A DNA stretch of 64,000 bases from Amoeboaphelidium occidentale (Eukaryota), in NCBI GenBank assembly GCA_023515795.1, contig JALGPX010000014.1, forward strand, positions 62,001-126,000, given 5' to 3'. Position 1 is the first letter of the stretch. Each line of letters begins with the position of its first letter. Positions 8,525 through 10,183 of the stretch are shown piece by piece. The position numbers and the translations under genes were made by a program. Below the pieces are notes generated by a model that worked only from the letters and a program-made list of their open reading frames with translations, made no database searches and was not told where the DNA came from.

Positions 8525-9456
8525 ATGCCAGTCTGTTGGCTCGAAATTCCGAGCGATGAAGAATTACATTGCAGTCCTGGATTTGAAAGTATTATTGTAG
8601 TGCTCCGGTGCTCTTTAGAAACATTGAATTCAGAAGAGCATATTGTAATGGGTCAGACAAGATATAGGCGTTTCCGTGGGCGCAATTACATTAAAATTCC
8701 AGGCGAGGATCAAGAGTGGCGTTTATTCGGCACAAATCTTGTTCCGCGGAAGTTTATCGAGTTCCTTCAGTTGCTTTATCCTATTGCTGATAATTTGAAC
8801 CCGTCGAGTGTTCATTATCGATATAATGCCATAAGAAATTTCGTTACAGAGGCAGCAACAATTCTCGGCAGCAATGATTTTGCAAATCTCACAGCCTGCT
8901 TACAAAAACACAAAGACGCACGGCCGCTGGACACGGAATCGCAGCTGTTGTTTGATGTATACAAATACTGTTTCGATAAGCCTTTGGATCCAACTAGCAC
9001 GACGTTGCATATCGAGCTCGAATCGAAATTCCCTGTTTGTGATGTTTGCTCATTTCACTTTCTTCAGTTCGCAGCTTCGCAGNNNNNNNNNNTGTTGGTC
9101 AGGTGCTGTTGTTGAAGATGATGAAGCCATTGTAGATGGACAAAATGATTCTATTAATAAAAATGTATGACGCTGGTTGCTTCAATCACGTATCACCAAC
9201 AACTAGCACGACGATGCATATCGAGCTCGAATCGAAATTCCCTGTTTGTGATGTTTGCTCATTTCACTTTCTTCAGTTCGCAGCTTCGCAGCTGACAGGT
9301 TTACCGATAGGAATGATTCATGTTTCGGTTAAACTTAGCCATGTATCCATTCGAAATGATAATCCTTTATATTGCTTATGGGATGCTTCTGATGGGCACA
9401 AAAAACGACTGCAACAATGTTATATTCATGGTGACGCAATTCAAGAGCACCAATAA
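8525..9456 (+). CDS. Putative nucleic-acid deaminase, polymorphic-toxin type (BURPS668_1122/Toxin-deaminase-like), about 240 aa when joined across the gap
   Basis: RPLDTESQLL...HIELESKFPVCDVCSFHFLQF fits the RxxDxExxhh...hxhxSxxxxCxxCxxxhxQF pattern. ORFs 8525..9082 and 9136..9456 overlap in sequence across the N-gap. Confidence 0.65.
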
Positions 9457-9457
9457 A

Positions 9458-10183
9458 TCATAATTCCATTTTACCGTAGAACGAGTCATGGGCACGGTAT
9501 ACAACATCCCATTTGTTTTCAGCAATCGCATTATGCCAGCCAAGAGCGTTATACCAATGACGCGGAATCCAAATAAGTTTAACCAAATCCTCATCCGAAA
9601 GCTCCGAAAGAAATTGCTTTCCTTCATTAGACGCTAAAGCGTTTCCGCATATCATCACTTTCATATCATTGCGAAGGGCCAAAATCTGTTTCAAAATCTG
9701 AATATCGCCGTCAGCCTTTAAACGATTATTCGACAAATTCACAATTCGGCACCACTTCAACTGTTCTAATACCATCAAGACATCTTTCAGATCCTTATTA
9801 GAAAGAAAGTTGTTTGACAAATCCATAGACATAACGACATTTGGATCGGCTGCGACCTCCGGGAGCTCGCAAATCGAACTGACTGGAGACATCCAACTGG
9901 CGCGCTGCAGATCATTCGAAGCAACTTTCCCTTTCAAATCAAGGCGTCCATTGACAAGAGTCTTTGAATTCATTGAGCTCGGTGATGAGATGAGAGAATT
10001 CGGTCGCCCGATTGGAAGCAAATACTTCTTGATGAAAACAGTCATCAAGAGCCGGTGCTCTGGTTTGGTCGCGTCAAGGATGTCTTCTACACTAACCAGA
10101 CCACTTGTCAAATCTTCCGCCATAACATCTTTAAAAAAAGCCCGCAATGGCTCAAATCTTTCTTCAATAATCAAATCCGTCAA
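9458..10183 (-). CDS. Leucine-rich-repeat protein (element cargo)
   Basis: SMDLSNNFLS, IVNLSNNRLK and VMICGNALA LRR units; start codon uncertain (TTG at 10183). Confidence 0.65.
   Translation of the reverse strand: MTDLIIEERFEPLRAFFKDVMAEDLTSGLVSVEDILDATKPEHRLLMTVFIKKYLLPIGRPNSLISSPSSMNSKTLVNGRLDLKGKVASNDLQRASWMSPVSSICELPEVAADPNVVMSMDLSNNFLSNKDLKDVLMVLEQLKWCRIVNLSNNRLKADGDIQILKQILALRNDMKVMICGNALASNEGKQFLSELSDEDLVKLIWIPRHWYNALGWHNAIAENKWDVVYRAHDSFYGKMEL

Follow-up and report, generated by a model that had tools for sequence, protein, structure and literature searches.

The 64,000-nt stretch of the Amoeboaphelidium occidentale contig JALGPX010000014.1 analysed here (the window) contains, at positions 7260-15383, an 8,124-nt (8.1-kb) capsid-less Polinton in the genome of an intron-poor, fungus-like opisthokont, whose ribosomal protein L5 finds its top matches in entries 8eug and 9axt, which are fission-yeast ribosomes. 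Besides a polymerase and an integrase, the element carries a two-gene cassette, which we tentatively interpret, with a little less than even confidence, as a likely deaminase and an LRR protein that together form an optional conflict module on the element and not an addiction lock.

Element structure and insertion site

The element and its flanks comprise the following features, outside the cassette.

6552-7259, forward strand: ATPase half of a host ABCG transporter (PF00005), split by the element
7254-7259: left target-site duplication, 6 bp, within the host ABCG coding sequence
7260-7573, forward strand: left terminal inverted repeat (TIR), 314 nt, with a weaker inner arm on to about 7750
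7800-8520: 721-nt stretch with no long ORF, present in the window and in run X1, replaced by 17 nt in runs X2 and X5
10274-11494, reverse strand: RVE (retroviral-type DDE) integrase (PF00665, 38.5 bits, cut-off 32.6)
11469-14636, reverse strand: protein-primed PolB (PF03175, E 9.6e-46, 157 bits), motifs present
14666-14833: array of 8-nt tandem repeats in the right subterminal region
15070-15383, reverse strand: right TIR
15384-15389: right target-site duplication, 6 bp
15390-15980, forward strand: membrane half of the host ABCG transporter (PF01061)

The two 314-nt TIRs differ at 4 positions and the element ends read AG...CT. The 6-bp target duplication has the length given for Polinton in the available part of PMC10045372. 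The halves of the ABCG gene lie in one continuous frame across the empty site, and this empty site is present in contigs of three of the four compared runs (X1, X2 and X4), so the insertion is likely to be recent. Four ORFs fill the element and leave 1,265 and 726 nt at its ends, mostly TIR. No packaging ATPase, cysteine protease or capsid gene was found in this element copy, whose leftover space has no room for them, and none of its six frames contains a Walker A pattern. Both N gaps of the element are bridged in other contigs; one of them lies in the integrase gene together with a duplicate at 10500-10715, and an X1 contig spans the gap and the duplicate.

These repeats, the duplication, PolB and the integrase bear out the initial annotation, which had placed the ORF and the LRR gene inside the TIRs of a self-synthesising transposon. 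Its description of the pair as cargo carried instead of virion genes is right in that virion genes are missing, but overstated, since the cargo occupies a variable slot and capsid-less Polintons are known. Those described in the available text of PMC4405056, for example from Trichomonas vaginalis, likewise combine pPolB, an RVE integrase, TIRs and a 6-bp duplication with the lack of a capsid. They measure 15-20 kb, whereas the present element has 8.1 kb and resides in a fungus-like opisthokont, and it has neither packaging ATPase nor protease, two genes that the same source calls common to all Polintons.

The element backbone (10274-14657) is depleted in CpG, with an observed/expected ratio (o/e) of 0.44 where host DNA has about 0.8, a deficit suggestive of a long stay under CpG methylation. 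Separately, in run X3, a small freshwater data set of 14 million letters, positions 7500-7820 and 10175-10700 reach summed depths of 4e4-1.2e5, and the element ends and integrase are spread over 276 contigs that include joins bypassing the cargo. Depth is not copy number, and these values might reflect free, amplified or packaged copies of the element family.

A variable slot next to the left repeat

In a separate comparison of four runs, each run had contigs that connect the left TIR region (7573-7751) directly with a point near 10256 and lack the cassette, and several of these cassette-free contigs hold 0.7-1.4 kb of other DNA that has no match here. The joins show that the slot, which lies between left repeat and integrase, takes up and exchanges accessory DNA; nematode Mavericks carry cargo at an equivalent place, according to the part of 10.1101/2022.07.12.499685 consulted. 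The summed depth in X1 rises from 90-97 over the cargo to 241-471 over the polymerase and about 1,200 at the integrase end, a gradient that agrees with cargo present in a minority of copies, bearing in mind that depth does not equal copy number. At the slot boundaries (7750-10256), copies in X1, X2 and X5 contain 0.7-1.8 kb of different DNA. The stretch at 7800-8520 has a CpG o/e of 1.01 and frames full of stops; it may be the remains of a further cargo gene or have inserted secondarily.

The cargo genes and their linkage

Four segments make up the cassette.

8525-9082, forward strand: deaminase-like ORF, residues 1-186, with R133-x-x-D136-x-E138 and C172-x-x-C175
9083-9199: assembly gap (10 N, 9083-9092) and a 107-nt multi-copy repeat (9093-9199), without counterpart in read-through contigs
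9200-9456, forward strand: second copy of a 92-nt segment and the C-terminal deaminase-like part, including the stop
9458-10195, reverse strand: short LRR protein of 245 codons, counted from the start that its relatives use, where the window reads Ile

The initial annotation described an ORF of about 240 aa; its frame, motif and stop at 9456 hold, but the ORF is discontinuous in the window and reaches that length only after 209 nt are omitted. RPLDTESQLL and IELESKFPVCDVC...QF share the frame opened by the ATG at 8525, positions 9200-9291 duplicate 8991-9082 (92 nt), and omission of the 209 nt yields 241 codons, equivalent to 240 aa and a stop. Exactly those 209 nt are skipped by contigs of X2, X4 and X5, which come from three different studies, and the database protein P0001 is continuous across the break site. 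In X1, two contigs abut at the break with a 30-nt overlap that is consistent with the same 209-nt-free join, and depth is 350-585 over the 107-nt repeat against 90-97 over the cargo. The interruption in the window is either a mis-scaffold or a real damaged copy, and several copies may be mixed in the element interior here. Across the whole window, many direct repeats of 100-300 nt lie beside short N gaps (for example D3, D5, D8 and D12-D14); repeats flanking N gaps are a mark of scaffolding overlap and cast doubt on apparent tandem duplications in this assembly. P0001, for its part, has a frameshift in its C-terminal part, which indicates that decay is real.

The LRR gene is real. Its stop at 9458, on the opposite strand, lies one base from the stop of the deaminase-like ORF, as first reported. 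The protein comprises about three repeat-like units and has five database relatives with identities of 31-98%, which have in common LSNN-type repeats and, at the C-terminus, a KLIWIP...GWH block; those with 82, 66 and 56% identity retain their full length and the conserved motifs. The original call of an LRR protein is supported through the relative P0006 (Pfam LRR_4, E 1e-4) and through LRR clusters in the ESM Atlas (0.93-0.94, with only 115-137 shared features), although the window protein alone gives a weak match (LRR_NXF1-5, E 0.02). P0006, 31% identical and encoded on a 5.6-kb contig, begins with MG..C, which we take to resemble a lipid-anchor motif. An X1 contig covering 9215-10303 has five differences from the window, all within the LRR gene, where one of them creates a stop (codon 169 of 245), with loss of the conserved motifs at the C-terminus. 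The deaminase pieces in X1 do not differ from the window, with the qualification that these are collapsed contigs and their two-contig join is inferred.

Single contigs cover both cargo genes in X1, X2 and X5, so that the expected co-occurrence of the pair in other copies of the element is observed within one host lineage. A variant in X5 that is about 86% identical (113 differences over 811 nt) keeps the tail-to-tail junction, and the cassette was found again in runs of five studies. Both cargo genes have a CpG o/e of 1.14-1.19, compared with 0.36 for the polymerase and 0.65 for the integrase, and all 32 host windows lie below the cargo genes (0.22-1.04). This common CpG-rich signature points to joint arrival from another genome and, together with the adjacency kept in the X5 variant, indicates that the genes travel as a cassette, which on its composition is likely to be foreign.

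Relationship of the ORF to toxin deaminases

The ORF probably descends from the deaminase fold, and we consider it slightly more likely than not that the putative enzyme is active. Its top Pfam match is PF14424 (E 0.05-0.06, 13.9-14.2 bits, profile positions 84-133 only), which falls below the gathering score of 29.6 bits. The BURPS668_1122-type assignment made initially fits the top match and the RxxDxE...CxxC core, and falls short in score (14 versus 29.6 bits). In the ESM Atlas, an unnamed and mostly eukaryotic cluster came first (0.88), followed by PF14424 clusters (0.88 and 0.86), and the best named clusters were PF14424 and other toxin-deaminase families (0.79-0.88), scores that serve as a lead only since they are below 0.9. 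A profile built from five above-cut-off PF14424 members out of 401 bacterial genomes ranked the ORF first among the 395 ORFs of the window and gave P0001 11.7 bits, where 2,000 shuffles reached no more than 5.4. Using hhalign, the probability was 19-23% over about 50 columns (E 0.0009 at 23%). Fold models reached a mean pLDDT of 39 and 45, and the helix-strand-helix-strand order over the motif region fits the deaminase (CDA) fold; a usable fold was not obtained because there are too few relatives. The family and structure searches gave no significant match for the ORF.

A HMMER search of 1.84 billion representatives returned four matches, namely P0001, a spurious plant repeat protein, P0010 and P0011, the last two with E 3e-4 and 8e-4 and 31-34% identity. 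P0010 and P0011 keep R133, T137, E138, C172, D173, C175 and S176, and C172 and C175 are invariant in all four aligned rows. The first zinc-ligand position is Asp (D136) in the window and Glu and Asn in P0010 and P0011, so activity may not be general. Scored with the bacterial profile, P0010 and P0011 did not exceed the top value among 2,000 shuffles. The signature of the clade, as given in the available text of PMC3239186, is RxxDxExK (helix 2) and CxxCxS (its CxxC in helix 3), with Lys or Gln allowed in the wider group. The window ORF has RxxDxE with Gln in the Lys position and Ser directly after CxxC, an arrangement that three of the five bacterial members share and that is not CxxCxS. RxxDxE...CxxC occurred in 39 of 20,000 shuffles, a pattern picked after it had been sighted, and the generic [HCD]xE...CxxC in 4.3% of shuffles. 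The likeness to BURPS668_1122/PF14424 as described there extends from the RxxDxE helix through the next strand, CxxC and QF to an insert ahead of the DxE helix. The window protein differs by its below-cut-off score, the Gln for Lys, about 130 front residues without a supported match, and its stand-alone form without delivery domains, encoded on a eukaryotic mobile element with no Imm2, Imm3 or SUKH neighbour. The product would likely work like a BURPS668_1122 enzyme and yet form, with P0010 and P0011, a small new family of its own. PF14424 members deaminate cytosine in ssDNA according to the part of 10.1101/2023.05.21.541555 consulted, and in the available text of PMC3239186 the Perkinsus members of the clade were judged inactive.

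That the ORF encodes something other than a deaminase, its motif having arisen by chance in a zinc-binding protein, or else a mutator that diversifies the element itself, appears very unlikely to us. The missing significant match and the CpG-poor backbone would fit these readings; however, independent methods agree on toxin deaminases, and it is the catalytic residues that are conserved. For a mutator, also raised in the initial annotation, the footprint of self-mutation is absent: transitions among copies show no C-to-T excess (in X1, C>T 119, G>A 108, A>G 111 and T>C 119, unpolarised), TpC is undepleted, and the cargo itself is CpG-rich.

Both genes might also be decaying passengers captured from another genome that confer no benefit, with a deaminase-like protein that may be inactive, an explanation we rate as fairly unlikely. 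It draws on lesions in three versions (the LRR start in the window, the LRR nonsense codon in X1 and the deaminase frameshift in P0001), on slot contents that differ among copies, and on the variable first ligand in relatives. On the other side, the full-length LRR relatives (82, 66 and 56%) and a divergent deaminase contig in X5 that keeps C172 through a silent change (among the rows listed) point to selection in the recent past, and the cassette recurs across runs of five studies.

Proposed function of the cassette

In the conflict-module reading that we prefer, the element would copy itself by protein priming and insert with its own integrase, as its genes suggest and as is the case for Polintons, and the cassette would be a later acquisition from another genome, taken into the slot when the backbone had already long been part of the lineage. 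The ORF has no strongly hydrophobic stretch at its N-terminus (best 11-residue mean 1.64, a crude proxy), and with no signal-peptide-like start secretion is unlikely, so that the protein would act inside the host cell. There, the predicted zinc-dependent enzyme would most likely convert C to U in exposed ssDNA, such as arises when invading viruses or rival elements replicate, with the LRR protein as a binding partner that may aim or restrain it. Some copies appear to decay.

The initial annotation had raised a toxin-antidote addiction or drive module. In such a module the deaminase would harm host DNA or RNA, the LRR protein would bind and block the deaminase, and any cell or spore to which the cassette-bearing copy is not passed on would suffer, which would drive that subfamily. 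We regard this as rather unlikely. The close adjacency and common composition of the genes, the retention of the pair in the variant of about 86% identity, and their joint damage in the downstream contig of the window (a deaminase part after the repeat and an LRR gene without its usual start) all speak for it. Precedents in the available text of the respective sources are LRR immunity proteins in bacterial polymorphic toxin systems (PMC3482391), toxin and immunity genes on fungal protein-primed linear plasmids (PMC13348850), and a Maverick cargo gene turned toxin of msft-1/tlpr-1 (10.1101/2022.07.12.499685). However, element copies exist without the cassette, and the X1 LRR gene carries its nonsense codon beside an apparently intact deaminase, albeit in collapsed contigs with an inferred join and in a gene that may be silent. 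Furthermore, immunity proteins listed for the clade, in the parts of PMC3239186 and PMC3482391 consulted, are of other types (Imm2, Imm3 and SUKH), and Imm-LRR is listed next to T5SS toxins (PMC3482391). The addiction claim is therefore not supported so far.

A more far-reaching reading, which we consider speculative and rather unlikely, is that the element offers an exchangeable weapon slot, comparable to the variable tips of bacterial polymorphic toxins, in a minimal self-synthesising transposon family of an early-branching fungus-like lineage. The present copy would then represent a new family of eukaryotic DNA cytosine deaminases that derive from toxins, paired with its own LRR inhibitor, as a toxin-antidote or antiviral-mutator module.

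Comparison with known systems

Capsid-less Polintons (PMC4405056), Maverick cargo (10.1101/2022.07.12.499685) and Perkinsus members of the deaminase clade (PMC3239186) are each already known separately from the portions of these sources compared. As described in the second of them, nematode Mavericks keep their virion genes and carry wasp proteases and krma kinases as cargo, while msft-1/tlpr-1 became a pair of toxin and antidote only afterwards, within a MULE, and with an antidote other than an LRR protein. Another close parallel is offered by pGKL1-type killer plasmids, which in the available text of PMC13348850 are TIR-bounded pPolB replicons of about 9 kb with a nucleic-acid-attacking enzyme and a second accessory gene. 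These plasmids are cytosolic, and their ribonuclease is secreted and relies on a chitinase for delivery, with no integrase mentioned in that text, whereas the element described here lies integrated in host DNA and codes for an enzyme whose start does not resemble a secretion signal.

In agreement with the initial annotation, which knew of no described Polinton with such a module, we found no Polinton or Maverick with deaminase or deaminase-LRR cargo in the Polinton, Maverick-cargo, toxin-antidote, Crinkler and deaminase-drive literature compared, which covered few subscription papers, excluded supplements, and included the available parts of PMC11161782, 10.1101/2023.06.29.547047, PMC6431247 and PMC2836005. 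Clade members are listed in the supplements of PMC3239186, which could affect this novelty. Through the present element, the range of the Maverick cargo slot grows beyond nematodes to include a very small element that lacks a capsid and resides in a fungus-like microbe, and a candidate deaminase of bacterial-toxin type on a eukaryotic DNA transposon represents a plausible entry route into eukaryotic genomes, a transfer proposed for other editing deaminases in the part of PMC3239186 consulted. If active, the family of the window protein would be a candidate base-editing enzyme, and an LRR protein proven to be the inhibitor would constitute new eukaryotic toxin-antidote chemistry.

Other genes in the window

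Positions 16998-18908 encode a TnpB/Fanzor-type gene (HTH_OrfB_IS605, Cas12f1-like_TNB) split by one stop, the 3' end of which is repeated at 19155-19348 and 30338-30530. Two adjoining P-loop proteins are encoded at 26931-28883 and 28983-30227, with DAP3 as the only Pfam match, for the second; both presumably resemble Crinkler-type NTPase-nuclease effectors.
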